IMG/VR virus record: IMGVR_UViG_3300042868_009434
DNA from: a virus
Lineage: Duplodnaviria; Heunggongvirae; Uroviricota; Caudoviricetes
Reading direction: 5' to 3' (one strand)
Length of the DNA stretch: 64,000 bases
Shown here: positions 17,013-39,723 of the stretch, piece after piece
How the letters are laid out: each line of letters begins with the position of its first letter
How positions within the stretch are numbered: the stretch's first letter is position 1
Made by a program: the position numbers and the translations under genes
Notes under the pieces: generated by a model
The model's input: only the letters and a program-made list of their open reading frames with translations
Database searches by the model: none
Told to the model about the DNA's origin: nothing

Positions 17013-18689
17013 TTATGACTCTTTACGTAACTCTCCTTCGTAATGTTCGAATCTATCGTGTTCAGTTGGGGATAAAAGTAATAAACCCGATGACAATTCA
17101 CCCTTTTTAGTTAATTGATACATATGACTCATCCATGTTTGTTCAAATGGATGTGCCCATGTTGTGTCCAAAAACATTTTTTTATTTCCTGGTCTACTAA
17201 CAATTTGAGGCCAGTTACAATAATAAACTTCACCGGAACCATATGGTAAACCTTTGTGAGATAAAATTGATGAAAATTTAGTTTTTGGTGCGTTAGGGTC
17301 TAACCCAAGATGAGGTAATGATGATTTTTCAGGCCAAAACTCTTCTCTAACTGATTGAGGTACGTTATACCAAGACCATTGGGTTCCATTATCTCCATAA
17401 AATTCAGAATAATTAAGTTTTAAAAAATCAAAATTTTCTTTTTTAATTATTTCTAATGATTTGGTGTACAAATTTGGTACATATCTATTAAACCCATTTC
17501 GACAAACAGAACCTTCATTAGGGAAGAAAAACATATCGTCTTCAAAAAATAAATAATAATCTAAATCTGTCGTTTCAAAATGTTCGGCAATCCATTGTCT
17601 ACCACCACAAATTCCAAGATTTTCTTTTTTTATGTGTTCAAATCCGTGTTCTTCACATAATTTCAAGTATTCCTCTGTTGTTGATAAATCTGTTGAATTA
17701 TCCAACAAATATTTCTTAGTCTTTAACAAATAATCATTATCATAAACTTCAAATGATTTAATTAAAGTTTTAAATTGATTTGGACTATTAAAAGTTAAAA
17801 CATAAAGTCCAACTTTATTTGTGTCTAAATTATTTTCAACACTAACTTTAGATTCATTTTTTGGTATTAAGTTATCATCTTTTAAATCTTCAAAAAACTT
17901 TCCAACCAACCCACTGGACTCAATTTCAAAATAGTTAATTAAATCAGAATGTTTGTAAGACATTATACTAAAGATTGATTCTTCAGTACCCATATAACCT
18001 TCATTAAGAGTAGATTTTAATAAACCATAATAAATTCCGTTAATATCTGTTATAGTACTTTTAGGTCCTCCAAAAAATCCTCCTCGAGAAACTCTTGTAA
18101 CCTTATCACCAGCAATTGAATTTAATTTATTATACTCAAAACCATGTATTTCACTTTCAGCCCCATAAGGAAAACTTATAAATGAAAATTTTGAAATATA
18201 CTTAGAAAGTTTATCAAGAACTTTATCATGAGTAAAATAACCCGGATGAACTGTATTGGTTAAACCTCCATCAATCCAAAACATATATTCTGAATCAAAT
18301 TTATCAAATATTTTTGCATCGTGTAAAAGAAAAACTTTTGACATTACCAATGGGTTATAATTTTCTAATCTAGACTGAGTAGAATCTTTTAACCACCCAA
18401 CTTGATTATACCAATCAGGGTTTGTTCTAATATTTTGAATTAATGGAAAAAATTCAGAATCGGTAAACCATTTTAAAGGTCTTTCAATAAACTGAGTATT
18501 TGATTCATTTCTTTTTCTAAAAACAAATTCTTTAAGTTCGTTATCCCCAAAGATTATCATATTTTCCTGAACATCTAAAAGTTGTTCAAATTTATCTAAA
18601 TAATGTTGGTACGACCTTGACCATCCTTCGGTTAAATTCTCTCTACCAATATCCCATATTCCTGTTACTAACGTTATATTATTCATCAA
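17013..18689 (-). CDS. WlaTC/HtrL-family glycosyltransferase fused to a GT-A-like domain
   Basis: ITLVTGIWDIGR, FWIDGG, GGFFGG and GTEE HtrL motifs; second domain with FFEDD. Confidence 0.75.
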   Translation of the reverse strand: MMNNITLVTGIWDIGRENLTEGWSRSYQHYLDKFEQLLDVQENMIIFGDNELKEFVFRKRNESNTQFIERPLKWFTDSEFFPLIQNIRTNPDWYNQVGWLKDSTQSRLENYNPLVMSKVFLLHDAKIFDKFDSEYMFWIDGGLTNTVHPGYFTHDKVLDKLSKYISKFSFISFPYGAESEIHGFEYNKLNSIAGDKVTRVSRGGFFGGPKSTITDINGIYYGLLKSTLNEGYMGTEESIFSIMSYKHSDLINYFEIESSGLVGKFFEDLKDDNLIPKNESKVSVENNLDTNKVGLYVLTFNSPNQFKTLIKSFEVYDNDYLLKTKKYLLDNSTDLSTTEEYLKLCEEHGFEHIKKENLGICGGRQWIAEHFETTDLDYYLFFEDDMFFFPNEGSVCRNGFNRYVPNLYTKSLEIIKKENFDFLKLNYSEFYGDNGTQWSWYNVPQSVREEFWPEKSSLPHLGLDPNAPKTKFSSILSHKGLPYGSGEVYYCNWPQIVSRPGNKKMFLDTTWAHPFEQTWMSHMYQLTKKGELSSGLLLLSPTEHDRFEHYEGELRKES

Positions 18690-19542
18690 TTATGTTATTT
18701 AATTTTTCAAAAATTTTATAAAAATATATTTCATTATCAAAGTTATATTGTGCCATATCACTATTTTCATGGTGCCAAGTAGTGAATATTAATTTATTAA
18801 AATTATTTTTATTTCTTTGATAGATTATTGTATATAAAGCCTCTTCCATGTCTAATGCATCATAATCAATCATTTCTTTTAAAACGTCATCATACATTAA
18901 ACAAAACTCATTAACAAGTTCTTTTTTACCACCGAACATACCTCCGACAATATGACAATTTTCAACAACATCTATGTTATGATAAAATTTCCCATTTGCT
19001 CTTCTTTCTAATAAGTGTTTTGATTGGTCTCCATATAATATTGTAACTTTATCTTCAACCTTATTCAAGTTTTCAACCATTGTAGGATTAAATAATGTAC
19101 ATGAGAAAAAGTCGTGGAAATTATCACCATTTCGATATTTTCTCGGAAATAAACCTCCATGTGATAATCCACAATCAATCCAATAATAAAAATCATAATC
19201 TTCCGATATATGATTTTTAATCCATGAGGTTTTACTATGCATTATTTCATGACATCTATCACTTTTATTTCCATTCAACATTTTTTGAAAATATTCATGG
19301 TTTGGATGTGAAAATAAATCATAAACAATAAACCTAACGTTTGATTTATATTCGGTAAAATCAATATGTTTTTCAAGATATTCTTTATCTTCTTGAGATG
19401 TGTAAATCACAAAATCAGATTCTAAATTTAGTAGTGTTCTCAACGAATTCACATAATGATGAATTCTACCAACACGACCACCTAAAATTGTGTTGTCTAA
19501 CCCGTTATAAAAACAAGTTATAAATAATGTTTTGTTTTCCAT
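18679..19542 (-). CDS. WlaTC/HtrL-family glycosyltransferase (paralog)
   Basis: K..W, YWIDCG, GGMFGG and EE motifs. Confidence 0.65.
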   Translation of the reverse strand: MENKTLFITCFYNGLDNTILGGRVGRIHHYVNSLRTLLNLESDFVIYTSQEDKEYLEKHIDFTEYKSNVRFIVYDLFSHPNHEYFQKMLNGNKSDRCHEIMHSKTSWIKNHISEDYDFYYWIDCGLSHGGLFPRKYRNGDNFHDFFSCTLFNPTMVENLNKVEDKVTILYGDQSKHLLERRANGKFYHNIDVVENCHIVGGMFGGKKELVNEFCLMYDDVLKEMIDYDALDMEEALYTIIYQRNKNNFNKLIFTTWHHENSDMAQYNFDNEIYFYKIFEKLNNIIDE

Positions 19543-19551
19543 TTTAATGTT

Positions 19552-20190
19552 TTAAAAAAATATATAATTTTGAGGTTTTCCGAAATTATTTTCGTCCCAC
19601 CATCCACCAACAAAATATTCATTGGTTTTTTCAATTGGAAAGGTTTTCAAATATGTTGAACAGTGAATCAAATATCTGTCATTAAATAAAGGTACTAATT
19701 TTTCTCTTAAAAATTTTTGGTCCGAATCATAGTAATGACCTTTCCAATCTTTACTTAATTCATTCATTTTAACTCTATTATTTTTTTTAATTCCCCACAT
19801 TCCACCCATAATATTATTATGACTAGGATTATCCCTAATTGAATGTAATAAGAATTCAGATTCCATAAAAATGTCAACACAATGTTTTTCCCTATATGAT
19901 AATCTGGCATCTGCATCTCTTGATATCATTACTTCAACATCCTCATCGTCAATTGCCAAAAATCTCCACATCATCGGGAAGATATGTTCTTCACCTTCAT
20001 CCATTAAGTATAATTCAACATTACTATAAGTTCTTAATTGTTCAACAACCTCCGATGGAACTGATTTACCATAATAAATTCTACATATCCAATCCGGAAA
20101 AATAACTTGAGCAATCTCAACATTACTTATCATTCCATAAGAATATTTTTGTTGCCCACCATATAAAGAAAATGATATTATTTTTTTCAT
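19552..20190 (-). CDS. Putative GT-A glycosyltransferase-like protein
   Basis: IISFSLYG, WRF, SRDAD (DxD), IRD.P.H, GGMWG and DQ.FL; paralog of 38268..38930. Confidence 0.5.
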   Translation of the reverse strand: MKKIISFSLYGGQQKYSYGMISNVEIAQVIFPDWICRIYYGKSVPSEVVEQLRTYSNVELYLMDEGEEHIFPMMWRFLAIDDEDVEVMISRDADARLSYREKHCVDIFMESEFLLHSIRDNPSHNNIMGGMWGIKKNNRVKMNELSKDWKGHYYDSDQKFLREKLVPLFNDRYLIHCSTYLKTFPIEKTNEYFVGGWWDENNFGKPQNYIFF

Positions 20191-21128
20191 TATTCTAAAT
20201 CCATAAAAGACCCGTAATTTTGTACAAACGAATTGTTTTTATACGGGTTTACAACCCCAAATTTATTGTTTAGTGCGCCATAAACAATAAAATTACTAAT
20301 CCAATTATAATTTGTAAATATGTTAATTTTTTCTGACATTGAAATTAAACAAAATTCAATTAAACAAAAGTTCCAATATTCTTCATCACTATAATCTCTT
20401 CTTGTTGTCTTTAAAATATCATCATCATATAAAAAAATATTATTAAAATGTTCTTTTATATATTGTTTAACTCTCATACTATTTGAACAAACAAAAACCA
20501 TTTCATTATTATCACAAATATCTTTTATTTTGTTCATTGTATTTTCATTTATAGAAAATGCTGATTTTAATTTTTTGTGTCTTACTTGAAACTCTTCATC
20601 TTGTATTTCAGGATGTAATATTCTTACATTATAGGCATCTCCAATGTCATCCCACTCTCTAAAATGAATAATACTAAAATTATTTAAACCATTATCTATT
20701 TTAAATTTTTCTGTGTTTTTAATAATCTTTTCAGATAATTTTGGGAAATCATTTAAGTCTTCATAATTTAATAACCCAGGATGAGATAAATTAACAAAAT
20801 ATTGTTTATGTTCATCATTGAATTCTTCAGGAACAAACATTTCCCAACAATGTACCCCCGCAGGCCATTTCTCATGTGGGTATTTTATTTTATAATTTTC
20901 AAAATCATTTAAAGTTTTCCCATTTTCAATTAAAAATATTTGGTCAAAATATTCATAATATTTAGGTTCAAATAAATTTAAAAAATCTATTTTCCTTTTG
21001 GAATTAAAGTACAAATGAACATCATGACCTAATTCTTTAAGTTGTTTAGATGAAAAATATATTTCACAAAAATAAGTGTAAAAATCTCCAATACCTGAAG
21101 TAAAATTTATTTGTATGTTAATAACCAT
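20190..21128 (-). CDS. O-fucosyltransferase-like (GT-B, GDP-sugar) protein
   Basis: SGIGD near the N-terminus, IHFR motif and FVCSNS, the layout of fucosyltransferase-type GT-B enzymes. Confidence 0.5.
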   Translation of the reverse strand: MVINIQINFTSGIGDFYTYFCEIYFSSKQLKELGHDVHLYFNSKRKIDFLNLFEPKYYEYFDQIFLIENGKTLNDFENYKIKYPHEKWPAGVHCWEMFVPEEFNDEHKQYFVNLSHPGLLNYEDLNDFPKLSEKIIKNTEKFKIDNGLNNFSIIHFREWDDIGDAYNVRILHPEIQDEEFQVRHKKLKSAFSINENTMNKIKDICDNNEMVFVCSNSMRVKQYIKEHFNNIFLYDDDILKTTRRDYSDEEYWNFCLIEFCLISMSEKINIFTNYNWISNFIVYGALNNKFGVVNPYKNNSFVQNYGSFMDLE

Positions 21129-21129
21129 T

Positions 21130-22080
21130 TTATAATTCTAATAAGTTCAGTGTGTATTCTATACTACTTTCCGGAGACAAATATTTTTCATAATACTTTC
21201 TAGCATTTTCTGAAATAAAATTTAAAAATTCTTTATCGTCTTTTACTTCTAAAAATCTTTTTGTTATCATATCCGCATGATGTTGTAATCCATTTCTATC
21301 TAAGTTCATCCAATCTTTTAAGTCATCCGGCCTTTCAACTGATATATAATGATAATTTGGAATCAATGGTTCGTGAAATTCACTTGTAAACTCAAATCTA
21401 ATGAATGGAATACCCATCGCCATACATTCTATATCTCTATAACAAATTTCACCTCTACCTGCAACAGAAAACGCAATCTCAAAATTCAACATTTCGTTAG
21501 CATAATTATCAAACCCACCAATTGGACCTCCACCATAAAAAACATCAGGACTAAAATAATTAAGAATAGGTCTTGTTGACGTATCACCTCTAAAATAAAA
21601 TTTGTCATTAGATATAACCATATTTTTTCTTAGATTGTAATAGTAATCTAAATCATATTCATTTGACGGAAAATATATCCATGGGAAGTATTTGTATTGA
21701 TTTTGGGGTGAAACATGATGATACACTTTTTCTCTAATAAATTGAGAGATAAAAACTTTTTTTACATTATCATACGATTGTAAGTTTAAAGTTGCCGAGG
21801 TTAAATCATCAGCAACTCCAAACACATATGTTTCACCTGTGTCATAATCTTCAATAATCATTTCACATTCGTAGGTCAATACATCAACATCATTTTCATT
21901 ATGTTGCCACCCCAATCTAACTAATTTTTGTCCGAGATGAGCATCTCTATAATATCTATCAGTCACGACATCGTGTTTTTCCGACAATTTTTTAATAAAA
22001 TTATCAAAGAATATATTGTAATACCTATATTTTTTACTTTGATGGTTTGTTGGTTGATGAACTATTAATTTTCTACTCAT
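21130..22080 (-). CDS. Glycosyltransferase, GT90/GT47-like
   Basis: FYFRG, SVAGRG..CYRDIE.MAMG and PNYHYISV...A..ITKR.....I.ENAR..YE.YLS. Confidence 0.55.
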   Translation of the reverse strand: MSRKLIVHQPTNHQSKKYRYYNIFFDNFIKKLSEKHDVVTDRYYRDAHLGQKLVRLGWQHNENDVDVLTYECEMIIEDYDTGETYVFGVADDLTSATLNLQSYDNVKKVFISQFIREKVYHHVSPQNQYKYFPWIYFPSNEYDLDYYYNLRKNMVISNDKFYFRGDTSTRPILNYFSPDVFYGGGPIGGFDNYANEMLNFEIAFSVAGRGEICYRDIECMAMGIPFIRFEFTSEFHEPLIPNYHYISVERPDDLKDWMNLDRNGLQHHADMITKRFLEVKDDKEFLNFISENARKYYEKYLSPESSIEYTLNLLEL

Positions 22081-22088
22081 TGATTTTA

Positions 22089-23354
22089 TTAACTAACTAT
22101 ATTATGGTGTAATCTACCTGTTATTCTATCACACCATCCTTTAGATGTTGAAAACGGCCATACAACCCAATGTGATGGTAATTCGTCTGTTTGGAATTCT
22201 CTCCACACTTTACAATATTTGTCAGGGTCTCTCATAAAACCAGCAATTTCGTTTTTATCTGCATCTTTTCTAAATAAAGTCTCATCTTTATCATTATGGA
22301 ATGCAACAACCCAAAACTCATAATCTTTTTCAGGTACTTGGTCATAACCAATATCAATACAATGTTTGAACATCATACAAAAACTATCTTTCCATTCTTG
22401 TTCTGTTTCAAAATTATATGGATTTGGTGGGTAATTTTTATCCAAAGTATATTTATCAATCGCTCTCTTTTCAAACAACAACCCTGAATACTTTTCATAG
22501 TCTGTTAAAGTTCTAATTGGACCAAATCCAAACGGACCATCATGTCCTTCTTGTTTCTCACCATCCATACCAAATAGTTTTCTATTTGTAAAATGAGAAT
22601 GTTTGTTTTTCTCTCCCCACGTTTTGTCGTCATCCCATTGTTTGGTTCTACCTTTACGAGTATATTCGTGATATACCACAGGAATTTGTGGATGGAACAA
22701 ATCGTAACCCCAAGTATAAGCTCTTGCAGCAATTGAAATTTCTTCACCATGAAAATAATATTCAGGGTTGTGTTGGACTTCTAACGAGAAGGCGCCCAAT
22801 GTAAAACAAAAGTGTGCTGAATAGAATCTTGCAGTCACAGGTTTTTTCATTTCTCTCCATCCCGGAATTGTTTCAGGTAAAAAGAATACCGCACCTTCAG
22901 GGATGAATCTATCGAATACCATTCTCCATGCTTCATTCACTCTACCTGCTGGGTCATTTTCAGGGTCAAAAGATGGTACGTAACCTGTTAATAAAGGTTT
23001 TTCATATCCGTCTTTTTGAAGACCTTTAATCATCTTGATTAAAATATCGTCCCAATCTTTAACAAATCTCATATGTGAATCTATTTGAAGGGTATATGTC
23101 TCACCACCATAAAGTTGTTGAGTTAGATTTCTCGCCCAACAAACACCTTTAGATTCTTCGTATGGAATATCCAAGATTTTAAATCTTTTATCTTTTCTAT
23201 AGTCTTCTAATTTATCGAATCCATCGTCTTCACTAAATTGTCTTGCAATTCCAAAATGAATATTTTTAGGTTTCTTGGCGTTCTCCAACATATTTTTAAT
23301 TGTTGGTTCTAATTGTGGGTCTCTGTAAGAGGCGATTTGAACAAATATTTTCAT
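22089..23354 (-). CDS. GT60-family polypeptide (Thr/Hyp) alpha-GlcNAc-transferase
   Basis: IFVQIASYRD, S.GVCWAR, LQIDSHMRF (DxH), SAHF.F, F.GEE..IAAR.YT.GYDLFHP and YH.Y.R, the motif order of PF11397 / Dictyostelium Gnt1-like enzymes. Confidence 0.85.
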   Translation of the reverse strand: MKIFVQIASYRDPQLEPTIKNMLENAKKPKNIHFGIARQFSEDDGFDKLEDYRKDKRFKILDIPYEESKGVCWARNLTQQLYGGETYTLQIDSHMRFVKDWDDILIKMIKGLQKDGYEKPLLTGYVPSFDPENDPAGRVNEAWRMVFDRFIPEGAVFFLPETIPGWREMKKPVTARFYSAHFCFTLGAFSLEVQHNPEYYFHGEEISIAARAYTWGYDLFHPQIPVVYHEYTRKGRTKQWDDDKTWGEKNKHSHFTNRKLFGMDGEKQEGHDGPFGFGPIRTLTDYEKYSGLLFEKRAIDKYTLDKNYPPNPYNFETEQEWKDSFCMMFKHCIDIGYDQVPEKDYEFWVVAFHNDKDETLFRKDADKNEIAGFMRDPDKYCKVWREFQTDELPSHWVVWPFSTSKGWCDRITGRLHHNIVS

Positions 23355-23378
23355 AGTATTACTTTTTGTTTTAAAAAT

Positions 23379-23407
23379 AAAAAACCCTCGAGATAAGTCG
23401 AGGGTTT
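23379..23407 (-). terminator. Terminator between the Thr/Pro-rich genes and the GT60 gene
   Basis: AAACCCTCGA-N6-TCGAGGGTTT with a T-tract on the minus strand. Confidence 0.75.
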
Positions 23408-23430
23408 AATGAAATATATTTTATTTTTTT

Positions 23431-25371
23431 TTATGAACATCCCGTTGGGTTTACAGTTGTAATTACACCTGGACCATTTGTACCAGACACTTCAATAGTT
23501 TTAGTTCCATCAGAATACCATCCATTAGGGGCTTCGTTAGTTGGAGGTATACCTGCGGTTAAGTATAATGTCTCTCCCACGTTAGGACCAGTTCCACCCG
23601 ATACCGAACCATAAATTGTTTGTGGTGTTGCAATACATGCAGCATTTTCCGTCAATCCTGTTCCTAAACTATATGTATAATAAGCGAAGGTTGATGTAGG
23701 TGTTGGTGTTTGAGTAGATGTTTGTGTAGGAGTTTGTGTATTTGTTGGTGTAGGAGTTTGCGTAGATGTTTGTGTCGGTGTTGGAGTTAATGTTTGACAT
23801 AAAGTAAAACCTCCTGTTTGTGTACCATTATTTAATTGAACAACAATTTGAGAATTATTAAAGTATCCGGTCAAGTTTATTGTACTTGGACCAATAATTG
23901 TATTGTAGAATATAGTATTATAATCAAATAAAGAATCTTCACCATATATTGTTATTGATGGGAAATATAATCCACATGCCTCGTCAGATGTTGTCCCTGA
24001 ATAAACATTAAATGCAAATCTATTACCTGTTGGTGTTGGAGTTTGTGTTGGTGTTCCTGTTGGTGTTGGTGTTTCACTAGATGTTTGAGTTGGTGTTTGT
24101 GTTTGAGTTTGTGTTTGAGTTTGTGTAGGAGTTTGTGTAGGAGTTGCCGTTAATGTGGTTGTTGTAGTAGGTGTTTGAGTAGATGTTTGTGTAGGAGTTT
24201 GAGTCTGAGTTTGAGTCGGAGTTGGTGTTAATGTTTGACAAGCAATAAAACTACCTGTTTCTGACCCATTATTTAATTGAACAACAATTTGAGAATTATT
24301 AAAGTATCCTGTTAAATTCCCAACACTTGGTCCAACAATTGTATTATAAAATATTGTATTATCATCAAAAGTTTGTTCTTCACCATAAATTGTTATTGAT
24401 GGGAAATATAATCCACACGCCTCATCAGATGTTGTTCCTGAATAAACTGTGAATGCAAATCGATTAGCTGTTGGAGTTGGAGTTTGAGTTGGTGTTCCTG
24501 TTGGAGTGTTAGTTGGAGTACCAGTTGGTGTTCCCGTATTTGTTGGTGTATTTGTAGGAGTTTGTGCTGGTGTTCCTGTATTTGTTGGTGTATTAGTTGG
24601 TGTATTAGTTGGTGTTGCCGTTGGTAATCCAATACAACCATTAGGGTCTGATGATGTAATTTCACCTAAACCTCCTGATACAATAAACCAAGCAGTTCCA
24701 TTAGAATAATATCCGTCAGAAACAGGGTTAGTTAATGGGTTACCAGGTGTTTGATATAAGAATTCACCAACATTAGGACCCGGTCCATCAACTACTTGAC
24801 CATAAACCGTTTGAGGTGATGCTGCAAAATCATTACAAGCATCACTTGCATTATTTCCAAAACCTAAACTATAAATGAAATATAAAAAAGTTGTGGTTGG
24901 AGTTTGAGTCTGAGTTTGTGTTGGGGTTTGAGTTGGAGTTCCCGTATTTGTTGGAGTCTGAGTTTGAGTTTGAGTTTGAGTTTGTGTCTGAGTTTGTGTT
25001 TGTGTAGGTGTTTGTGTTTGTGTAGGCGTAGGTGTATTAGTTGGTGTTTGAGTTTGAGTTTGAGTTTGAGTTGGTGTAGGCGTATTTGTTGCAGTATTAC
25101 TTGGTGTTGGAGTATTTGTAGAAGTTGGTGTATTAGTTGGAGTTGGGGTATTACTAGCCGTAACCGGAGGAAATGCTCCTTGGTTTACCAATACAACACT
25201 ATTTCTAAATGAAGGTGCAATTGAATAAGTATTATTAAGTAACCAAATATTCTTAGTTTGATTTGGTATTAATTCAACCTGATATTGCCATAGAGAATCA
25301 TCACATCTTCTATAGTTAAAGTTCACTATTGTGGAACCGGTATTTGTTAAAGTATATTTACTACAAGCCAT
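23431..25371 (-). CDS. Thr/Pro-rich mucin-like repeat protein with Cys-containing globular modules (probable virion surface fibre)
   Basis: Long TPT/TQT/TNT tracts separating about 80-aa modules; no signal peptide; TATTTAT motif at 25390-25396. Confidence 0.7.
   Translation of the reverse strand: MACSKYTLTNTGSTIVNFNYRRCDDSLWQYQVELIPNQTKNIWLLNNTYSIAPSFRNSVVLVNQGAFPPVTASNTPTPTNTPTSTNTPTPSNTATNTPTPTQTQTQTQTPTNTPTPTQTQTPTQTQTQTQTQTQTQTQTPTNTGTPTQTPTQTQTQTPTTTFLYFIYSLGFGNNASDACNDFAASPQTVYGQVVDGPGPNVGEFLYQTPGNPLTNPVSDGYYSNGTAWFIVSGGLGEITSSDPNGCIGLPTATPTNTPTNTPTNTGTPAQTPTNTPTNTGTPTGTPTNTPTGTPTQTPTPTANRFAFTVYSGTTSDEACGLYFPSITIYGEEQTFDDNTIFYNTIVGPSVGNLTGYFNNSQIVVQLNNGSETGSFIACQTLTPTPTQTQTQTPTQTSTQTPTTTTTLTATPTQTPTQTQTQTQTQTPTQTSSETPTPTGTPTQTPTPTGNRFAFNVYSGTTSDEACGLYFPSITIYGEDSLFDYNTIFYNTIIGPSTINLTGYFNNSQIVVQLNNGTQTGGFTLCQTLTPTPTQTSTQTPTPTNTQTPTQTSTQTPTPTSTFAYYTYSLGTGLTENAACIATPQTIYGSVSGGTGPNVGETLYLTAGIPPTNEAPNGWYSDGTKTIEVSGTNGPGVITTVNPTGCS
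23780..24465. repeat. Internal duplication of a 245-nt module (23780-24024 and 24221-24465)
   Basis: Both copies encode NRFAFxVYSGTTSDEACGLYFPSITIYGE...TGYFNNSQIVVQLNNG...CQTLTPT. Confidence 0.85.
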
Positions 25372-25438
25372 GTTATTTCTGTTTAATATATAAATACTAC
25401 AATAGTATTGATTTTATGTTTTTATCTTAAAATTATTT

Positions 25439-27427
25439 TTATGCACAAGCAACACAACCACCATTAAAAGTATATGAACCTCCCGACGCAGTAATATCTC
25501 TTCTAACAGAACCATCAGTAATCCAATAAGTACCATCGGATAATACTGTTGATGATGTTATTGTTGTTGCAGTACAAAAATCATTATCTAATACAACATT
25601 TTGAAAAGGGTTAATTGTATCACAAACCGGAGTACTATCGTAATAATAGTTTATAATCGTTGTTGGTGTTTGAGTTGGTGTTGGACTTGACGTTGGAGTT
25701 TGGGTAATTAAATCAGCACAACCTAATGGGTCTGATGAAGTAATTTGTCCAAAACCACCTGTAACTCGATACGATGAGGTTCCGTTAGAATAATATCCAT
25801 CAGGCACTGCATCTGTAAGAGGTCTTCCTTCGGTTTCGTATAAATATTCACCCACGTTTGGACCTACACCACCTTCAATTGTTCCGTAGATTGTTTGTGG
25901 TATTGCAATACACGCATCATTAGAAGTTACCCCTGTCCCTAAACTATACGTATACCATGCAAATGTTGATGTAGGTGTAGAAGTTTGAGTAGGGGTTTGT
26001 GTATTTGTTGGTGTATTAGTTGAAGTATTTGTTGGAGTATTTGTTGGTGTACCTGTTTGAGTTTGAGTTGGTGTATTTGTTGGTGTATTAGTTGGAGTTT
26101 CGGTATTAGTTGGTGTGTTTGTTGGTGTTTCCGCAGGTGTTCCTGTATTAGTTGGTGTATTAGTTGGAGTTTCCGTATTTGTCGGTGTGTTAGTAGGAGT
26201 TTCCGTATTTGTCGGTGTGTTAGTAGGAGTTTCCGTATTTGTCGGTGTGTTAGTTGGAGTTTCTGTGTTAGTTGGTGTGTTAGTTGGAGTTTCCGTATTT
26301 GTCGGAGTATTAGTTGGCGTATTAGTTGGAGTTTGTGTTGGAGTTGATGTATTAGTCGGTGTTGGTGTTGGAGTCACAGGACAAGCAGATGTCGAAACAA
26401 TAGTTGCTCCTGTTGTACAACCAATTCCACAATCAGTACTTAATTGATATTCTATTCCATCAATCGCATACCATCCTTCAGGGTTTCCTGTATTTGGACC
26501 ACTTGGGTCAGAGAAAAACGCAGTACTCGCACTAAACACCGGGTTGTTACCCCATATTGTGGCTACTTGTATACAGTTACACGAAGCACCACCATTAGTC
26601 TCACTATGACAAATATTGTCAAATTCATATCTAATAGGTTCTGTCGGGGATGGTGTTATTGTTGGTGTATTAGTTGGTGTTGTTGTTGGCGTTGAACTTA
26701 CAATAGGTGTTGATGTATTAGTAGGTGTATTAGTTGGCGTCTGTGTATTAGTTGATGTATTAGTTGGTGTTGGAGTAGGTGTTGTCACAACACTTAAACA
26801 AGTCGAACAATTATCATAATCTATTGATAATGATGATACATAATCAGAACCAGTTCCCGGGGCCTCAGTATTAACAATTTCATAACATCCATCTGATGTT
26901 TCTCCTGAGAATGTTAAATAATAATTTCCTCCAATCACAGGAAGAGATACACTATTAAAATCAACATTTAAAGCAGTACCACCCAAACAAGGTGCAATAA
27001 GGTATGTTACCAAAATTTGAATTTGAGTTTGTGTTGGAGTTTGTGTTGGAGTACCAGTTTGAGTATTAGTCGGAGTTTGAGTTGAAGTATTAGTTGGAGT
27101 ATTAGTTGGTGTTTGAGTTGAAGTGGTAGTATTAGTTGGCGTATTAGTTGGAGTTGATGTATTAGTAGGGGTATTAGTTGGAGTATTAGTTGGTGTTGAA
27201 GTACTAGTCATTGTTGGCGTAGGTGTCGGAGCTAAAACATCTAAACTATAAGTGTATCCGTATGTTGGCACATAACAATTATATGTTCCATACACATAGT
27301 CTGAAATATAATTAAATGGGAACACCTGAGTCCCAAGACTAATTGTTCCACCTGATTGAGGTAGAAACGTCACATTTGTAGTTAAACCACTTAAATTATT
27401 ACTTAAAATTCTTATTCCAATTGCCAT
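25439..27427 (-). CDS. Thr/Pro-rich mucin-like repeat protein 2 (probable virion surface fibre)
   Basis: Extensive [15 protein letters not shown] tracts; shares the YSLG.G...AC..PQT.YG...G.GPNVGE.LY module with 23431..25371; TATTTAT motif at 27432-27438. Confidence 0.7.
26161..26310. repeat. 30-bp tandem repeat, about 5 copies (encodes [10 protein letters not shown])
   Basis: TAGT(T/A)GGAGTTTCCGTATTTGTCGGTGTGT units start at 26161, 26191 and 26221, with variants at 26251 and 26281. Confidence 0.9.
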
Positions 27428-27465
27428 ATCAATAAATACTCAATTTTTCTTATTTTATTTTTTTT

Positions 27466-28029
27466 TTAACAAACACCCTGATTTATAATCAATGTTCCGG
27501 ATATTTGTACAAATCTTGCTCCGTCAGATATTGTGAAATCCGCATTTATCGGTGGGATAGTCATTAATCTATCACCAAATACATGGTCACCCACATTTAA
27601 TTGAGTAAAAGGTTTTACCGAATATACCGTAACATTGGCGGGGTTTGCAAATGAATTTACTGATTGACAAACATTTTGATACCAACCTCCCGTTCTTAAA
27701 TTTTGAATATACACCGGTTGAGGTGTATTTGATGGTGTTGCAGTATTTGTTGGTGTTGGAGTCTGAGTAACCGGAGTTGGTGTTAAACTAACTGTAGGAG
27801 TTACCGATGGTGTGATTGAAGGTGTCGGTGTATTTGACGGACACAATCCAATATTATTTATTGTTAATGGAGCACCATAATCTTCTTGAGTTAAATCATC
27901 AGCACAAACAAAATCAGTTTGTAATGGATTTACTTGTGAAACACTAATAATTCCTGTACAACCTGTCCATTTATAATATCCTTCTTGAATATTATTATAA
28001 TTGGTTATTTGATATTGATTACAACTCAT
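27466..28029 (-). CDS. Small Thr/Pro-linker protein with two Cys modules
   Basis: N-terminal MSCNQYQITN...Y.W..C resembles MACSKYTLTN...Y..C of 23431..25371; central PT tract. Confidence 0.6.
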   Translation of the reverse strand: MSCNQYQITNYNNIQEGYYKWTGCTGIISVSQVNPLQTDFVCADDLTQEDYGAPLTINNIGLCPSNTPTPSITPSVTPTVSLTPTPVTQTPTPTNTATPSNTPQPVYIQNLRTGGWYQNVCQSVNSFANPANVTVYSVKPFTQLNVGDHVFGDRLMTIPPINADFTISDGARFVQISGTLIINQGVC

Positions 28030-28031
28030 TA

Positions 28032-30020
28032 TTATACAGGTGTTGGGGTCGGAGTTGGGTTTATTGATTCATAGTATAAATCATTACTTGGTATAGAAAG
28101 ATAATATAAATCATTATCCGGAATAAAAATGTAAGATAAATCATTACTTGGAATTGTAATTCTACAATTCAAACAATTAGGGTCTAATAAATTGTATTTT
28201 AACTTTAATAAATTAAAGTTATGTTTTATTTGAGACGCATTTAATGGTTCGGTGTACATTCTAAACGCACTTATATCACCAATCATACTCCCCCCAAAAT
28301 ATTCTTCTAACTTAATATGAGTTGTAAGACCTGAGTAAATTGTATTATCTAAATCATGTGTTGTTAAACATTCAGGGTCTTGTTGATAAACGATATCATC
28401 AATTGTCGGAGGGCATCCACCCGAAAAAGTTAAGTTATCATGAAGACCTTGAGTTCCTCCACCTAATGAAATATTATATCCAACCCCAATTTGTTTTTCT
28501 TTTGGAGTATCTAATAGACGTGGAATAATTTCTTCAAAGTTTTCTGCAACCATAAACAATTTACCATTCACATAGAATTTCATTGTTCCTAATCTATATT
28601 TTTCTTCGGCAGTCCAATTATCGTTGAATGTTACAATTTCAGTTGTTGCGGGGTCGTATTTTTCTTCGTGAGTAATTGGTGGCTCGATTAAACTAATACT
28701 ATTGTTTGCAGTTGTTGCAGTATAAATTTCTTTAACGATTAATCCAAGACCTCCTTTATTATTCAAATCACAAGCATCAAACCATTCGTTTCGTTGAAAC
28801 ACCGCATCTATTTGAACCCAATGCTCAACATTTGAATAAGTTGTACCACTACAGTCATCAAAGATTCCTCTTGTAGAGCACCATTCAGTAACTGAAGTTC
28901 CTGTTGTATAGGTTATACCTGTTAAACAAGTTCCCGTTGTTTCACATCCCCCGGTTATTCTATATGTTTTCACACATAATCTTGGACTTCCTGTATCACC
29001 ACTTAATCTTAAAGATAAAGCATTTGAAACTCCATCATATAATGGGTCAGTTTCAGGATATTGGACACTTACCTCACAAGAACATGGACAACCACAACTA
29101 CAATTATATGATGTACCACCTGACTGTTGATAAACTTTTAAACAATCATGAGGGTTACTACCTAATAAATTACAAGCGCAAGTATCCATACAAGTTAAAC
29201 CTGAAGTAACTCTTGTATAACCTGAATCTTGTTTTGGTGAACCATCGGCGTAATGGTAGAATTTGTTTTCCGCTCTCGCTCCCATATAAAAGAATGTTCC
29301 TTTATTATTTGGGTATCGAGAATTTAAACCAACAGAAGTATCACCGGTCCATCTATATCTTAACATAAATTCGGCACTCCAACCTAAATTAGGTCTTTCA
29401 GGAAAAATTTGGTAATCATAACCAGCAACCTTGTAAAATCCTTGGAAGAATCCACCATCTAATCTCGCAACATATCCAATATCACCACCGGCATTGTTGT
29501 ACGATAAATCATACGAATATGAATTATCATTCCATAATCTATTCTGTGATGTTGTGAACCCAGTGATTGGGTGCATTTTCATCCTTCTATCGTATTTGTA
29601 TCTACTAAATTTGTCTGATTGTGTGGTATAAAGCCCGGTATTAATTTGAATTGTTTCTCCGGACATATGTTTTACCAAACCATTGTCAATTCCCGTTAAA
29701 CCAACATCACATAAGTCAGTTATTATAGGGCAAAAATTTGGGTCAGTATCAGTAGGGTTCCAATAATTTTCTGACACAATAGTGTCATAATCAAATGTAC
29801 ACGCACTTGTAGTACATAAAGTTGTTCCTGAACTATTGAAATTGAATTTAAACGGCATTCTATTACCATCCAATTCACCAATTAATAAAGGTGAAAAAAC
29901 AACCTCTTGGTCGTAATCTTTTTCGTCTGAAGCAAGACAAATGTCCGTGATTTCATTCGCCGGTTTTAGACCCCATCGTCTAAAATTATACTGATTAATG
30001 TTTTGATATGCCATATACAA
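28032..30020 (-). CDS. LamG/concanavalin-like virion protein with C-terminal PT tail
   Basis: W...D.VF, MKFYVNG and G.IS.FRMY..PL...QI..NF are laminin-G-like. It ends in three IPxNDLxY repeats plus PTPTP. The start may be 30014. Confidence 0.55.
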   Translation of the reverse strand: MYMAYQNINQYNFRRWGLKPANEITDICLASDEKDYDQEVVFSPLLIGELDGNRMPFKFNFNSSGTTLCTTSACTFDYDTIVSENYWNPTDTDPNFCPIITDLCDVGLTGIDNGLVKHMSGETIQINTGLYTTQSDKFSRYKYDRRMKMHPITGFTTSQNRLWNDNSYSYDLSYNNAGGDIGYVARLDGGFFQGFYKVAGYDYQIFPERPNLGWSAEFMLRYRWTGDTSVGLNSRYPNNKGTFFYMGARAENKFYHYADGSPKQDSGYTRVTSGLTCMDTCACNLLGSNPHDCLKVYQQSGGTSYNCSCGCPCSCEVSVQYPETDPLYDGVSNALSLRLSGDTGSPRLCVKTYRITGGCETTGTCLTGITYTTGTSVTEWCSTRGIFDDCSGTTYSNVEHWVQIDAVFQRNEWFDACDLNNKGGLGLIVKEIYTATTANNSISLIEPPITHEEKYDPATTEIVTFNDNWTAEEKYRLGTMKFYVNGKLFMVAENFEEIIPRLLDTPKEKQIGVGYNISLGGGTQGLHDNLTFSGGCPPTIDDIVYQQDPECLTTHDLDNTIYSGLTTHIKLEEYFGGSMIGDISAFRMYTEPLNASQIKHNFNLLKLKYNLLDPNCLNCRITIPSNDLSYIFIPDNDLYYLSIPSNDLYYESINPTPTPTPV

Positions 30021-30023
30021 TTG

Positions 30024-30050
30024 ATAAATACCTTGATTCGTAGTATTTAT
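30024..30050. promoter_or_regulatory. Back-to-back divergent TATTTAT motifs
   Basis: ATAAATA at 30024-30030 (minus-strand gene) and TATTTAT at 30044-30050 (plus-strand gene). Confidence 0.6.
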
Positions 30051-33048: not shown

Positions 33049-34260
33049 ATGTCAAAAATAAAAGTATTAGTCGTACCATCCGACAGAAGCGGAGTTGGTA
33101 AATTTAGGTCAGTTGACCCACACATTTTCTTACAAAATCTTTATGGGGGTGATTTTCATATCGATATCATCTATGACCCGTCCTATGACGATATGAACTT
33201 TTGGAAAAAATACCAAATTGTTAGTTTCCATAGAAGTATCGGTCCTGATTTTGAAAAGTCTCACGAATTAATCCAAAAATTAAATACTATGGGTATCATA
33301 ACTGTTTGTGATATCGATGACTATTGGATGCCTGGTAAAGAACATCCTATTCATGACATTATCATGTTTAATAAAATAAACGAAAAGATAGTGGCAAATC
33401 TTAAGGTTGCAAAATATGTTACTACAACAACCACACTATTTGCCGATGAAATTAGAAAATACAATAAAAATGTTTTTGTATTACCAAACGCAATAAATCC
33501 TAACGAACCTCAATTTAAAGAACCAACATTAGAATCTGATAGATTAAGATTCGGATGGTTAGGGGGTTCATCTCACTTACACGACATTCAAATATTAAAC
33601 GAAGGGTTTAATAAATTAACAAAATACCAAGATAAAGTACAATATGTTCTTTGTGGTTTTGACACTAGAGGTACGGTAACTGAAATCAATTCACAAACCG
33701 GAGAACACGTAAAACGAAATATTAAACCTGACGAAACTGTTTGGGCTCAATATGAAAAAATCTTCACACAAGATTATAAAATAGTTTCAGACGAGTATAA
33801 AAAACATTTGCTATTATACAATCAAGATATATTTCCTAATGAGATGGCAGAATCTTACTTAAGAGTTTGGACAAAACCTGTTACATCTTATGCAAAAAAT
33901 TATTCAAAATTTGATGTATCTTTGGCACCAATTAAAAACCATATGTTTAATAGAATGAAATCTCAATTAAAAGTAATTGAGGCGGGATTCTATAAAAAAG
34001 CATTAATCGCCTCTAATGTAGGTCCTTATAGTTTAGATTTAAAACATTGTTTAAAAAATGGGGAATTAGTTGACGGAAATGCGTTATTAGTTGATGAGGT
34101 TAGAAATCATTCTGATTGGGCAAAATACATGGAAAAATTAATCAAGAACCCTAATATGGCAAAAGATATGGGGGAAAGATTGTATGAGACAGTTAAAGAC
34201 AAGTACGATTTAAATATCGTAACAAAAGACAGAGCAGAATTTTATAAATCAATACTATGA
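33049..34260 (+). CDS. GT-B glycosyltransferase (GT4-like)
   Basis: DIDDYW, VLPNAI, FGWLGG.SH, D.SLAP, KS.LK.IEAG and IASNVGPY. Confidence 0.8.
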   Translation: MSKIKVLVVPSDRSGVGKFRSVDPHIFLQNLYGGDFHIDIIYDPSYDDMNFWKKYQIVSFHRSIGPDFEKSHELIQKLNTMGIITVCDIDDYWMPGKEHPIHDIIMFNKINEKIVANLKVAKYVTTTTTLFADEIRKYNKNVFVLPNAINPNEPQFKEPTLESDRLRFGWLGGSSHLHDIQILNEGFNKLTKYQDKVQYVLCGFDTRGTVTEINSQTGEHVKRNIKPDETVWAQYEKIFTQDYKIVSDEYKKHLLLYNQDIFPNEMAESYLRVWTKPVTSYAKNYSKFDVSLAPIKNHMFNRMKSQLKVIEAGFYKKALIASNVGPYSLDLKHCLKNGELVDGNALLVDEVRNHSDWAKYMEKLIKNPNMAKDMGERLYETVKDKYDLNIVTKDRAEFYKSIL

Positions 34261-34958
34261 TAAACATACCATTAAACAAGATTTTATTTTTAGACATTGA
34301 AACTGTTGGTATTGAACCAACGTGGGAGTCACTGTGTTTAAATCGACCTGAACTCTCATTCCAATTTGAAAAATATTTTGATTGGTTTCAAAAAAGATTT
34401 CCGGAAGATGCGGATGAGGGTCCGGGTAAAATGTTTGTAAACAGAGCGGCATTAGTTCCGGAATTTTTACGAATTGCCTGTGTTAGTGTTGCGTTTGTGG
34501 CACCTGATGGTACTACAAAAATGGAATCATATAGTAATGTGGACGAAAAAGAACTATTAAAAGATGTTCAGAAAATGCTTCATCGTACCGGTGAATTAGG
34601 ATTCTTCCTATGTGGTCATAATGTTAAAGGGTTTGATATTCCTGTTCTTGCAAAAAGAATGATTATGAATGGATTATTACCTCCAAAAATATTACCAGGT
34701 CATGACACTAAACCTTGGGAGATTAAAGCTCTTGATACCAAAGAAGTTTGGCAATATGGTGGTTATGGGTCAATCGCGTCATTAGAACTGATGTGTGTTT
34801 GTTTAGGTGTTGAATCTTCAAAAAATATGGAAGTAACAGGAAACAAAGTTCACGAAGCTTTTTGGGATAAAAAAGACATTAAAGGAATTGTTGAGTATTG
34901 TGAAAAAGATGTTGAAGTGTTGATAGAAGTAATTAAAAAATTAAAAGAATTAGTATAA
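34257..34958 (+). CDS. DnaQ-like 3'-5' exonuclease (PolB exo2-type)
   Basis: DEDD motifs FLDIET, GHNVKGFD and YCEKD. Confidence 0.85.
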   Translation: MINIPLNKILFLDIETVGIEPTWESLCLNRPELSFQFEKYFDWFQKRFPEDADEGPGKMFVNRAALVPEFLRIACVSVAFVAPDGTTKMESYSNVDEKELLKDVQKMLHRTGELGFFLCGHNVKGFDIPVLAKRMIMNGLLPPKILPGHDTKPWEIKALDTKEVWQYGGYGSIASLELMCVCLGVESSKNMEVTGNKVHEAFWDKKDIKGIVEYCEKDVEVLIEVIKKLKELV

Positions 34959-35581: not shown

Positions 35582-35582
35582 T

Positions 35583-38266: not shown

Positions 38267-38267
38267 A

Positions 38268-38930: not shown

Positions 38931-38933
38931 CTA

Positions 38934-39722: not shown

Positions 39723-39723
39723 A

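Follow-up and report, generated by a model that had tools for sequence, protein, structure and literature searches.

The window analysed here, i.e., an entire 64,000-nucleotide stretch of DNA, comes from a large (~300-kb), uncultured, freshwater T4-like phage and carries what may be viewed as a phage-encoded, cytoplasmic system of mucin-type O-glycosylation, one that would act, inside the host, upon the phage's own surface fibres. A probability of roughly 55% is assigned to this reading, in which we infer what the acceptor and the sugar are, in what order the steps run, and that the proteins are located in the virion. Ten minus-strand ORFs are found across positions 17013-30020 (Table 1), all as described in the original prediction, and with spacings of -11 to +76 nt between neighbours the abutting or overlapping array which that prediction envisaged is confirmed. 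The order is a LamG/ConA-fold protein, three T-x-T-tract proteins, a GT60 enzyme, and then five further glycosyltransferase-like genes.

Table 1. Features of the window, with positions, strand, and basis of assignment.
Feature	Position	Strand	Basis
LamG-like protein, 662 aa, 24 Cys; ConA/LamG-type lectin jelly roll	28032..30020	-	structure comparison
187-aa protein: N-domain, PT tract (residues 60-107), C-domain	27466..28029	-	
Bead-on-a-string protein, 662 aa, 17 Cys: four T-x-T/P tracts (310 residues) joining Cys-bracketed modules	25439..27427	-	
Bead-on-a-string protein, 646 aa: six tracts (269 residues), module A x2, module B x2	23431..25371	-	
GT60 (PF11397) glycosyltransferase, 421 aa, soluble	22089..23354	-	Pfam/PHROG profile matches
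GT90/Glyco_trans_1_2/RXYLT1_C-like protein, 316 aa (lead)	21130..22080	-	language-model embedding similarity
Fucosyltransferase-like protein (NodZ/O-FucT/FUT8-like), 312 aa (lead)	20190..21128	-	language-model embedding similarity
Small viral GT-A-like 'hexosyltransferase', DAD motif, 212 aa (lead)	19552..20190	-	language-model embedding similarity
HtrL-like protein, 287 aa, core partner	18679..19542	-	Pfam HtrL_YibB 0.027 (weak); XacN1 ORF332 homologue
Two-domain protein, 558 aa: HtrL_YibB (residues 4-253) plus C-terminal GT-A-like domain with EDD motif	17013..18689	-	Pfam 4.5e-17
Second glycan island	33049..51220	+	
TATTTAT motif, 10 nt before LamG-like gene start	30024..30030	-	
TATTTAT motif of 662-aa bead-on-a-string gene	27432-27438		
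TATTTAT motif of 646-aa gene	25390-25396		
Terminator-like hairpin, 10-bp stem plus T-run, between last PT gene and GT60	23382..23407	-	

Three of these proteins had been said to possess long T-P, T-Q, and T-N tracts, as indeed they do. TPTxTPT-coding sites number 36 in the window, every one within 24035-27196, versus 0 in shuffles (n = 100). By residue the tracts are 43% T, 19% P, 9% N, 8% Q, and 6% S, with 277 threonines in total (T:S ~7.7:1), and their alternation is strict, i.e., 250 instances of TxT versus 18 of TT. PT-rich linkers nevertheless occur unglycosylated in many secreted proteins, which is counted against the glycosylation reading.

The LamG-like protein lacks sequence matches in Pfam, PHROG, or PDB, and its family comprises 676 representative clusters. 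Its AF2 model (pLDDT 78), however, aligns with TeNT Hc and with the cyanopodophage Pan3 tailspike at Z 15.0 (VIA-align; 222-233 residues), with the AbnA CBM at Z 14.7, and with the PilC lectin and CBM40 at Z 12-13.7, so that the fold originally proposed can be accepted; BFVD matches are to S-PM2 virion structural proteins (1e-5). The protein ends in NPTPTPTPV, and in many relatives the gene is longer (as many as ~1,470 aa), with PT tracts and modules following on. The 187-aa protein is steady in length (183-191 aa across 48 related loci). A phrog_15511 match to the 662-aa bead-on-a-string protein falls within its tract. Module A of the 646-aa protein (88 aa, two invariant Cys, predicted fold with pLDDT 86.7) has no PDB match and is confined to viral Atlas clusters, some of which bear Peptidase_S74 (45% of members) or He_PIG (29%), and some module A-bearing viral proteins have tail-fibre chaperone domains. 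Length and module content of the PT proteins are hypervariable between relatives, even where GT60 is 100% identical. The LamG-like and the three bead-on-a-string proteins are probably virion surface fibres or adhesins, as suggested by the lectin- or tailspike-like fold, by the phage-fibre-associated modules, and by an upstream motif held in common with the tail sheath gene. The LamG-like and bead-on-a-string proteins also are Cys-rich, which was counted toward a virion role.

For 14 of 55 genes, among them tail sheath and substrate genes, that motif, TATTTAT, occurs in the 45 nt preceding the gene, versus an average of 2.55 for permutations of the same composition. It is absent upstream of all of the glycosyltransferase genes. 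Together with the terminator-like hairpin which precedes GT60, this difference implies that substrate and enzyme genes probably do not form one operon, adjacency not being co-transcription. The predicted layout of substrates and then glycosyltransferases is thus upheld as adjacency on one strand, but the two sets are split by their signals.

The GT60 protein is, by sequence, a true member of its family (PF11397, 1e-64, 219.7 bits versus a cut-off of 21; phrog_24687, 7e-164), a family of more than 7,000 metagenomic clusters. As had been claimed, its motifs are intact, with DSH (D92, H94) and HGEE (202-205) invariant over both phage lineages, and there is an additional conserved C-terminal region of ~120 aa. 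Those GT60 members that have been characterised transfer alpha-GlcNAc to polypeptides, either to Thr, as the start of mucin-type glycans, or to Hyp (PMC8724618, PMC3769586); the T. cruzi enzyme, for example, modifies Thr of a Thr-run peptide (PMC3769586). By analogy the phage enzyme is proposed to be the initiating polypeptide GlcNAc-transferase. Since the soluble, cytosolic GT60 Gnt1 modifies instead Hyp of Skp1 (PMC8724618), a prolyl hydroxylase, whether of phage or host, might act first, with GT60 then following as does Gnt1. One complete relative does carry three PF13640 oxygenase genes, and another has a sulfotransferase plus a gene of no known family between its PT proteins, but PF13640 is absent from jumbo phage XacN1 as well as from another complete relative, tract Thr is more than twice tract Pro, and TQTQTQ-type stretches are without any Pro, all of which makes this variant improbable.

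As for 'extending enzymes', that part of the original prediction holds for two genes and otherwise describes mostly a strain-variable insert. The core set consists of GT60 and two HtrL-type genes only, whereas the GT90-like, fucosyltransferase-like, and small GT-A trio, found in 6 of 77 loci (the 316-aa gene in 6-7 of 77), is a strain-variable cassette, resembling in this respect surface-glycan diversification. The original calls for this trio, i.e., GT90/47-like, fucosyltransferase-like, and DxD GT-like, are supported as language-model leads only. Of the two HtrL assignments, that of the 558-aa protein is significant; the 287-aa match to Pfam is weak, although the protein has homologues in XacN1 ORF332 and in the N-terminal half of ORF330 (27-29% identity to XacN1/Xoo-sp13, E 1e-23 to 1e-27, tblastn). 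The 558-aa gene (42% identity to XacN1 ORF330) is the steadiest GT60 partner, standing directly after GT60 in most distant relatives, and 57+6 of 77 loci have the 287-aa gene.

Outside this setting, LPS/LOS core loci are the only place where HtrL_YibB proteins are known (PMC4172580), which would suit a lipid-linked or cell-envelope acceptor. From this perspective the glycosyltransferases might alter a glycan of the host envelope during infection (that of the LPS/LOS core, the capsule, or the S-layer), e.g., toward superinfection exclusion, with the neighbouring PT tracts being plain, flexible, unglycosylated linkers of phage adhesins. Consistent with such remodelling are the strain-varying cassette, as in O-antigen loci, the separate transcription signals of PT and enzyme genes, and the O-antigen-like content of the window, with ~16 glycan genes and a GDP-sugar pathway among them. 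Many of these are in the second island, where GT4-, GT2-, and GT11-like and DUF6492 proteins, a hexapeptide acetyltransferase, and an FkbM methyltransferase accompany GDP-mannose 4,6-dehydratase, an epimerase/reductase, and a DegT-type enzyme; donor sugars and additional transferases likely come from this island. The island's products lack membrane segments, however, and in 17-51 kb as a whole there is no membrane protein, membrane-embedded priming transferase, flippase, glycan polymerase, or ligase, nor, the exonuclease-like protein excepted, any membrane-type hydrophobic segment among the ORFs (Kyte-Doolittle 19-residue mean < 1.6). Substrates and transferases alike are therefore without membrane anchors, as originally noted, and this soluble-only gene set is consistent with stepwise transfer onto a soluble acceptor. 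Every characterised GT60 member, moreover, works on polypeptides (PMC8724618), and envelope remodelling leaves unexplained the recurrence of GT60 with PT tracts in unrelated phages and T6SS clusters (below). It is considered to be unlikely.

Sugars might be destined instead for phage DNA, hypermodified against restriction, as phage GT-A and GT-B enzymes are known to glycosylate 5hmC DNA (bioRxiv 10.1101/2023.12.21.572611). The cluster adjoins a DNA polymerase gene, a dUTPase/dCTP-deaminase-like gene is nearby, and there is a weak PHROG match to a T4-type glucosyltransferase. Pfam searches of window ORFs of at least 150 aa nonetheless yielded neither a C5-methyltransferase nor 5mYOX/TET nor a hydroxymethylase, two papers on phage DNA glycosylation list neither GT60 nor HtrL among the DNA-glycosyltransferase families, and the number of glycan genes goes well beyond any known DNA-sugar pathway, making this a very improbable reading.

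Co-occurrence of GT60 and PT-rich genes in large phages, which had been suggested as a check, was indeed found. In nearly all of ~77 close loci with upstream DNA, GT60 is immediately preceded by 1-4 PT ORFs. The unrelated jumbo phages XacN1 and Xoo-sp13, whose DNA polymerase falls outside the matches of the window polymerase, have in common with the window both HtrL genes and a GT60 of 45-47% identity, and possess 51 TPTxTPT sites each, located in large proteins whose genes neighbour those for tail sheath and baseplate. This is versus 0 sites in five large phages without PF11397 (1.54 Mb), a small control set, with GC content varying between the genomes compared. Among bacteria, a PT-tract ORF lies no more than 8 kb from GT60 in ~10 of 32 GTDB loci, with independent architectures, including T6SS VgrG spikes with a ~(TP)70 end inside a TssF/TssA/TagF/TssM cluster. 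Other such proteins are PqqD-, Tat-, or T9SS-tagged, and any with Tat or T9SS export signals would need to be glycosylated before being exported. PT tracts thus accompany GT60 in at least five independent gene architectures, and the comparative sequence data support a GT60/PT-tract link recurring in independent lineages.

In favour of the main reading, two or more glycoproteins were stained by Schiff reagent in XacN1 virions (PMC5852040, Suppl. Fig. S4). These were seen as bands, not as named proteins, though, and the PT genes of XacN1 lie away from its GT60 gene. GT60 and its partners could in principle glycosylate some other protein, i.e., a host protein or else capsid or tail-tube subunits, with PT adjacency reflecting a common hypervariable region; phage precedent exists in mycobacteriophages, as summarised in PMC12619734. 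That reading seems rather doubtful given the recurring architectures, the absence of PT tracts from the five GT60-less large phages, and the agreement of Thr-rich, Pro-containing tract chemistry with known GT60 acceptors (PMC3769586).

With the phage's own fibres as acceptors, the proposed sequence of events is as follows. The LamG-like and three bead-on-a-string proteins would be made late, presenting Cys-bracketed modules on strictly alternating T-x-T/P stalks. Soluble GT60 would place the first HexNAc on stalk Thr; going by the precedent of its family, this would be an alpha-GlcNAc drawn from the host's UDP-GlcNAc. The chain would then be lengthened by the two conserved HtrL-type transferases as well as by the strain-variable cassette and the neighbouring 18-kb island, the latter providing GDP-6-deoxy sugars along with acetyl and methyl tailoring. 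Stalks, if so, would be stiff, protease-resistant, and hydrophilic, and their glycan strain-specific; roles in antibody shielding or host mimicry are, for a freshwater phage, speculation.

Among known systems, Gram-positive serine-rich-repeat adhesin loci employ a GT4 GtfA/GtfB pair which starts with GlcNAc, Ser-rich repeats, and accessory Sec export. As in the window, repeat-rich substrate genes there adjoin cytoplasmic transferases, with GlcNAc added and then extended, but the window has no GT4 GtfA/B initiator pair, Ser-rich repeats, or dedicated export system. Giant viruses (chlorovirus capsid glycans, Mimivirus fibrils) encode their own nucleotide-sugar pathway (GMD, aminotransferase, acetyltransferase) and many soluble transferases. 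The window is similar in combining virus-encoded nucleotide-sugar genes with soluble transferases for surface glycans, though giant viruses infect eukaryotes, and theirs are N-linked or fibril glycans without GT60-initiated mucin-type tracts.

Closer in enzymology are the protist GT60s, i.e., the Dictyostelium Golgi pp-alphaGlcNAcT and cytosolic Gnt1 along with T. cruzi TcOGNT-2, which are of the same family and retain DxH and GEE. Like Gnt1, the phage enzyme is soluble, without a signal anchor; as with T. cruzi mucins, its candidate acceptors, here next door, are Thr/Pro-rich; and, as in the Skp1 pathway, the enzyme next after it is a two-domain transferase. It differs in being bacteriophage-encoded, with its function predicted, in its extra C-terminal region, in having HtrL-type rather than GT2/GT74 partners, and in tracts that alternate strictly rather than forming Thr runs.

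Among phages, XacN1 resembles the window in its clustered GT60 (ORF334, 45%), HtrL-like (27%), and HtrL+GT (42%) genes, and in TPTxTPT tracts beside tail genes; it differs in having PT genes away from GT60, a carbamoyltransferase in the cluster, and an unmatched DNA polymerase. Its authors proposed that a phage glycosyltransferase makes virion glycoproteins, with family, tracts, and acceptor unnamed (Yoshikawa et al. 2018, PMC5852040), so the original remark that no description of a GT60-initiated pathway in phages was known is true only in part. In mycobacteriophages, capsid and tail-tube C-termini are glycosylated by phage enzymes (Freeman et al. 2023, cited in PMC12619734), so that there too, as is proposed here, phage-encoded transferases decorate their own structural proteins in the cytoplasm. 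The summary in PMC12619734 mentions neither mucin-like tracts nor a nucleotide-sugar pathway, whereas the phage considered here has dedicated PT-stalk proteins together with a large glycan island.

The stretch is phage DNA, coding as it does for a tail sheath, an SNF2-type helicase, a family-B DNA polymerase and a gp23-type major capsid protein. Ten abutting ORFs occupy the minus strand between 30020 and 17013, and the table gives their order along with that of associated features. The main reading, to which we assign a probability of somewhat over one half, is that these genes effect a cytoplasmic, mucin-type O-glycosylation by the phage of its own stalk proteins. That is, a GT60 enzyme and its partners would act on proteins which bear tracts of alternating T-x-T/P (PT tracts).

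Features of the putative glycosylation locus and of its surroundings
Feature	Position	Strand	Description
662-aa protein	28032-30020	-	Cys-rich, LamG-like; first in gene order
187-aa protein	27466-28029	-	long Thr/Pro tracts
662-aa PT protein	25439-27427	-	long Thr/Pro tracts
646-aa PT protein	23431-25371	-	long Thr/Pro tracts
Module A	23434-23697, 24625-24888, 25706-25963		88 aa, two bracketing Cys; within PT genes
Terminator-like hairpin	23382-23407		10-bp stem and T-run; between last PT gene and GT60
421-aa protein	22089-23354	-	GT60
316-aa protein	21130-22080	-	downstream of GT60
312-aa protein	20190-21128	-	downstream of GT60
212-aa protein	19552-20190	-	downstream of GT60
287-aa protein	18679-19542	-	downstream of GT60
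558-aa protein	17013-18689	-	last in gene order
Second glycan island	33049-51220	+	GT4-, GT2-, GT11-like and DUF6492 proteins, hexapeptide acetyltransferase, GDP-mannose 4,6-dehydratase, epimerase/reductase, DegT-type enzyme, FkbM methyltransferase
TATTTAT, examples	5406-5412, 25390-25396, 27432-27438, 30024-30030		upstream element

The 421-aa protein belongs to GT60 by profile (219.7 bits against PF11397, E 1e-64, curated cut-off 21) and matches PHROG 24687 at 7e-164, its gene being represented in more than 7,000 metagenomic clusters. The DSH and GEE motifs that the original prediction described as intact are so indeed, with D92-S93-H94 and H202-G203-E204-E205 invariant in an alignment of the window enzyme with its divergent homologues from the Xanthomonas jumbo phages XacN1 and Xoo-sp13 and from five metagenomic relatives. 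We take DxH to be the metal-binding motif, GEE to lie downstream of it, and both to be common to GT60 and GT27. PF11397 is the sole Pfam family detected in the window enzyme, from which a ricin-type lectin domain is absent; it is by the lack of that C-terminal domain that GT60 differs from GT27 (PMC8724618). A conserved C-terminal stretch of about 120 aa beyond the Pfam domain matched no Pfam family, nor did the GT60 query match any PDB sequence. GT60 enzymes are polypeptide alpha-GlcNAc-transferases, starting Thr-linked mucin-type glycans in Dictyostelium and T. cruzi, and one of them, Gnt1, is soluble and cytosolic, modifying hydroxyproline (Hyp) of Skp1, with a two-domain transferase acting next (PMC8724618, PMC3769586). 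Those characterised so far are from protists only (PMC8724618).

Directly before GT60 stand Thr/Pro-rich proteins, as had been predicted, with 277 tract threonines over the three of them. Sites coding for TPTxTPT, counted here as a marker of such tracts, number 36 in the window, all within 24035-27196, versus 0 in 100 shuffles. Thr makes up 43% of the tract residues, Pro 19%, Asn 9% and Gln 8% but Ser only 6%, K and R being absent, and their alternation is strict, TxT occurring 250 times versus 18 for TT. A complex prediction for GT60 with a 49-residue PT tract, run without controls, returned a score of 0.00, which speaks in neither direction. The PT proteins otherwise are chains of small modules, every one flanked by a pair of cysteines, with N-terminal domains kept among relatives and modules shuffled. 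One of these, module A, has a confidently predicted fold (pLDDT 86.7) for which Foldseek and VIA-align searches of solved structures gave nothing convincing, the best being a Z of 4.1 to xkdH. In the ESM Atlas it occurs in viral proteins only, some clusters of which carry Peptidase_S74, a tail-fibre chaperone domain (45% of members), or He_PIG (29%).

The LamG-like protein at the head of the locus, with 676 representative clusters in its family, had no match in Pfam, PHROG or PDB sequences. A model of it, built with 36 homologues (pLDDT 78), nevertheless is a ConA/LamG jelly roll, which speaks for the fold originally proposed: Z is 15.0 to both the lectin domain of tetanus toxin Hc and the tailspike of cyanopodophage Pan3 (rmsd 3.5-3.6 A, 222-233 residues aligned), 14.7 to carbohydrate-binding domain 4 of AbnA, and 12-13.7 to the PilC lectin module and CBM40 domains. 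BFVD matches include S-PM2 'virion structural proteins', and in many relatives the gene is longer, with PT tracts and modules appended and a length of as much as about 1,470 aa. Searches of cultured phages by tblastn with this and the 646-aa PT protein found nothing. Given the lectin fold, fibre-associated modules, paired cysteines and hypervariability, we infer that the candidate substrates are exposed, adhesin-type fibres.

The pairing of tracts with GT60 recurs in other genomes. Among the best 80 of 389 IMG/VR contigs with GT60, all at least 84% identical, one to four PT ORFs lie directly upstream of GT60 in nearly every locus having upstream DNA, and these ORFs vary in number and length even at 100% GT60 identity. 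In two complete relatives, of 309 and 321 kb, there are 59 and 74 TPTxTPT sites, found beside GT60 and in second regions elsewhere. At 43-47% identity GT60 is present as well in XacN1, Xoo-sp13 and two Stenotrophomonas phages, with a homologue of the 558-aa protein in all four and one of the 287-aa protein confirmed in XacN1 and Xoo-sp13. The latter two phages have 51 TPTxTPT sites each (0 for a reversed control pattern). The PT genes of XacN1 are not adjacent to GT60, its sites instead falling in the large proteins ORF369-372 beside the tail sheath, in the ORF232-237 set, in ORF325 and in ORF384. The anticipated co-occurrence of GT60 with PT-rich genes is seen in a comparison of four genomes with GT60 versus five large phages lacking PF11397, which over 1.54 Mb in total had 0 sites. 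Megablast with the region in its entirety gave no match among cultured phages. Close kinship with XacN1 was ruled out, its DNA polymerase not being among the matches to that of the window, and, as those matches include no XacN1-like phage at all, what is demonstrably shared with such phages is the glycosyltransferase module only.

XacN1 virions possess at least two Schiff-stained glycoprotein bands, and the phage's two glycosyltransferases have been suggested as their makers (PMC5852040); one of those two is a homologue of the window GT60. These bands are the one indirect hint of HexNAc-initiated glycans on such tracts. The supplement to that study does not match the stained bands to named proteins (PMC5852040). 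A GT60 system with some different protein target we consider quite unlikely. Hydroxyproline as the acceptor, by way of a prolyl hydroxylase, is very unlikely and is retained as a minor variant only, for PF13640 is present in one complete relative but was found neither in another complete relative nor in XacN1. As XacN1 is cultured and has its proteomics deposited (PXD008065), the idea of stalk glycosylation is directly testable.

Further potential modifying enzymes are seen in these phages. In the complete relative G002 (309 kb), at 78-82 kb (L102:6295-9661), further PT-tract proteins, in a second region of that genome, flank a sulfotransferase (PF13469) and an adjoining phrog_8954 gene of unknown function, so that the same stalk proteins, or the glycans on them, might be sulfated or hydroxylated. 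In XacN1 (AP018399.1 219791-222088, i.e., L082:13409-15706), and likewise in Xoo-sp13, a carbamoyltransferase lies between the GT60 and HtrL genes; the same glycan may include carbamoylated sugars.

Of the partner enzymes, the 558-aa protein has an N-terminal HtrL_YibB domain (PF09612 / TIGR02192; 63 bits in Pfam versus a cut-off of 24.1, E 4.5e-17) and a GT-A-like second half. As its score of 72.9 falls below the NCBIfam equivalog cut-off of 264.9, it is a member of the HtrL_YibB family rather than a YibB equivalog. The 287-aa protein scores weakly against the same family (14.5 bits versus the Pfam cut-off of 24.1) but resembles the HtrL half of XacN1 ORF330 (tblastn, E about 1e-7 to 1e-9), and XacN1 ORF332 is its clear homologue. 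A literature search for a link of GT74 with HtrL found nothing useful. For the remaining trio, nearest clusters by language model, which serve as leads only, are GT90/Glyco_trans_1_2/RXYLT1_C (316 aa), NodZ/O-FucT/FUT8 (312 aa) and a viral 'hexosyltransferase' (212 aa).

GT60 and the 558-aa gene are present in all 77 close loci and a diverged 287-aa homologue in 63 of them, the trio in only six, GT60 and the 558-aa gene standing 1.5-7.2 kb apart with differing inserts. The 'extending enzymes' which the original prediction placed after GT60 are therefore largely a strain-specific cassette, a pattern that diversifying selection on a surface glycan would be expected to produce. DNA comparisons of 18706-22085 with loci L005, L010, L013 and others show that what lies between GT60 and the 558-aa gene is exchanged from phage to phage within flanks that are 77-95% identical; that gap is a hot spot of glycosyltransferase cassette exchange.

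Could these enzymes be remodelling the host envelope instead? HtrL is associated with LOS (PMC4172580) and the locus does look O-antigen-like, but such remodelling would leave unexplained both the recurrent PT association and the absence of membrane machinery, and we view it as unlikely. Among the ORFs scanned from 17 to 51 kb, the single one with a hydrophobic segment codes for an exonuclease-like protein; candidate substrates and glycosyltransferases alike have none, and so are, as had been claimed, soluble and without membrane anchors. Glycosylation of DNA is exceedingly improbable. GT60 is not among the known DNA-glycosyltransferase families compared, and scanned window ORFs of at least 150 aa include no enzyme that would generate 5hmC or 5hmU, neither a C5-MT plus 5mYOX nor a ThyA-like hydroxymethylase; for want of such partner enzymes among those ORFs, a reading as DNA sugar hypermodification was ruled out.

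With stalk glycosylation, the phage GT60 would place HexNAc on stalk threonines in the host cytoplasm, the HtrL-type proteins and variable cassette would then lengthen the glycan, and the plus-strand island would supply GDP-6-deoxy sugars along with acetyl and methyl tailoring. As there is no membrane component, transfer should be direct and stepwise to a soluble acceptor rather than by way of lipid-linked assembly. Within that island, at 41010-46428, the GT11-like protein is adjoined by GMD, an Fcl-like reductase and a DegT-fold enzyme (Pfam families). Elsewhere, a 510-aa protein at 10744-12276 bears a complete Fe/Mn superoxide dismutase domain in its N-terminal half, with no Pfam match to its C-terminal half (about 280 aa).

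Substrates and enzymes also appear to be regulated apart. Of 55 genes, 14 have TATTTAT on the coding strand no more than 45 nt before their start, versus an average of 2.55 for same-composition permutations. Genes so preceded include those for the tail sheath, head-tail-adaptor-like and OmpA-like proteins as well as the LamG-like, 662-aa PT and 646-aa PT genes; none of the roughly 26 glycan and sugar genes is among them. The motif probably is a late or structural promoter element of this phage; the T4 late promoter TATAAATA is not enriched (14 found versus 15.7 expected). From its distribution, the candidate substrates fall into the structural-gene regulatory class and the enzymes into another. 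Enzymes and donor sugars might then already be in place before the late substrates are made, a timing which fits with two regulatory classes.

GT60 is found in bacteria as well, at 37-70% identity in a set of 32 loci from GTDB genomes and MAGs. A homologue of the 558-aa protein adjoins it in most GTDB loci, usually directly downstream, and a PT-tract ORF lies within 8 kb in about ten of the 32, in architectures that are independent of each other. On the Ralstonia sp. 25C chromosome (NZ_CP196737.1; L135:7950-13131), a full-length GT60 sits within a T6SS cluster (TssF, ImpA/TssA, TagF, TssM). Some 1 kb away is a VgrG spike (Phage_GPD, Gp5_trimer_C, Phage_base_V) with a C-terminus of approximately (TP)70. 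VgrG-like ORFs with the same (TP)n tail, as judged by sequence only, are seen in Achromobacter (L133) and Paraherbaspirillum soli (L128). This proximity suggests that the VgrG tails may be glycosylated, something not described in the ten best-ranked of 81 matches of a literature search. Directly upstream of GT60 and on the same strand, a Gemmatimonadota MAG codes for a PqqD-domain protein with a PT/ST-rich tail (L121:7212-7952), with a similar PqqD/PT-type protein, going by its sequence, in another (L115:7143-7937). PqqD being a peptide-recognition domain, this is akin to a RiPP-style substrate that bears its own recognition element. A Verrucomicrobia GT60 locus has a protein which is almost entirely PT and has a Tat signal, and the PT protein near GT60 in Saprospiraceae, which one in Bacteroidia resembles, matches a T9SS sorting domain weakly, below the threshold.

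It is tentatively conceivable, though at less than even odds, that GT60 with (T-x/P)n tracts is a widespread and so far undescribed prokaryotic system for cytoplasmic mucin-type O-glycosylation of proteins in contractile injection machines and other surface appendages, both the fibres of phages from several jumbo lineages and the C-terminal (TP)n tails that T6SS VgrG spikes bear. The initiating enzyme, eukaryote-like as it is, would then have passed between phages, bacteria and protists, with strain-variable extension cassettes giving rise to a phage 'glycocalyx' serotype. If the stalks are glycosylated, then an abundant lineage of freshwater phages makes its fibres of mucin-like glycoprotein, which would account for some 16 glycan genes in a phage without membrane machinery and would predict strain-level glycan 'serotypes', bearing on adsorption, protease resistance, and evasion of grazing or defence. 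An enzyme family characterised only in protists would also be at work in phages (PMC8724618). The same logic, if true of VgrG-(TP)n tails, would be a novelty in the biology of secretion systems, and GT60 plus a short T-P peptide tag could be put to use in bacteria for cytoplasmic glycoengineering.

That no earlier description exists for phages was correct in part. The XacN1 authors had already suspected the enzyme (PMC5852040), but literature searches found neither a description of the enzyme as GT60, nor one of T-x-T/P tracts systematically accompanying it in phages and T6SS VgrG, nor one of the HtrL core partners or of the variable cassette. The parallel drawn originally with serine-rich-repeat adhesin loci likewise holds for layout, substrates then glycosyltransferases, but for that only: those loci have a GtfA/GtfB initiating pair and accessory Sec export, and scanned window ORFs include no such Pfam families. 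Virus-encoded glycan machineries are known from giant viruses. Glycosylation of phage virions, in turn, is already known from mycobacteriophages (Freeman et al. 2023, as cited in PMC12619734), and glycosylated stalks would extend it past that capsid case.
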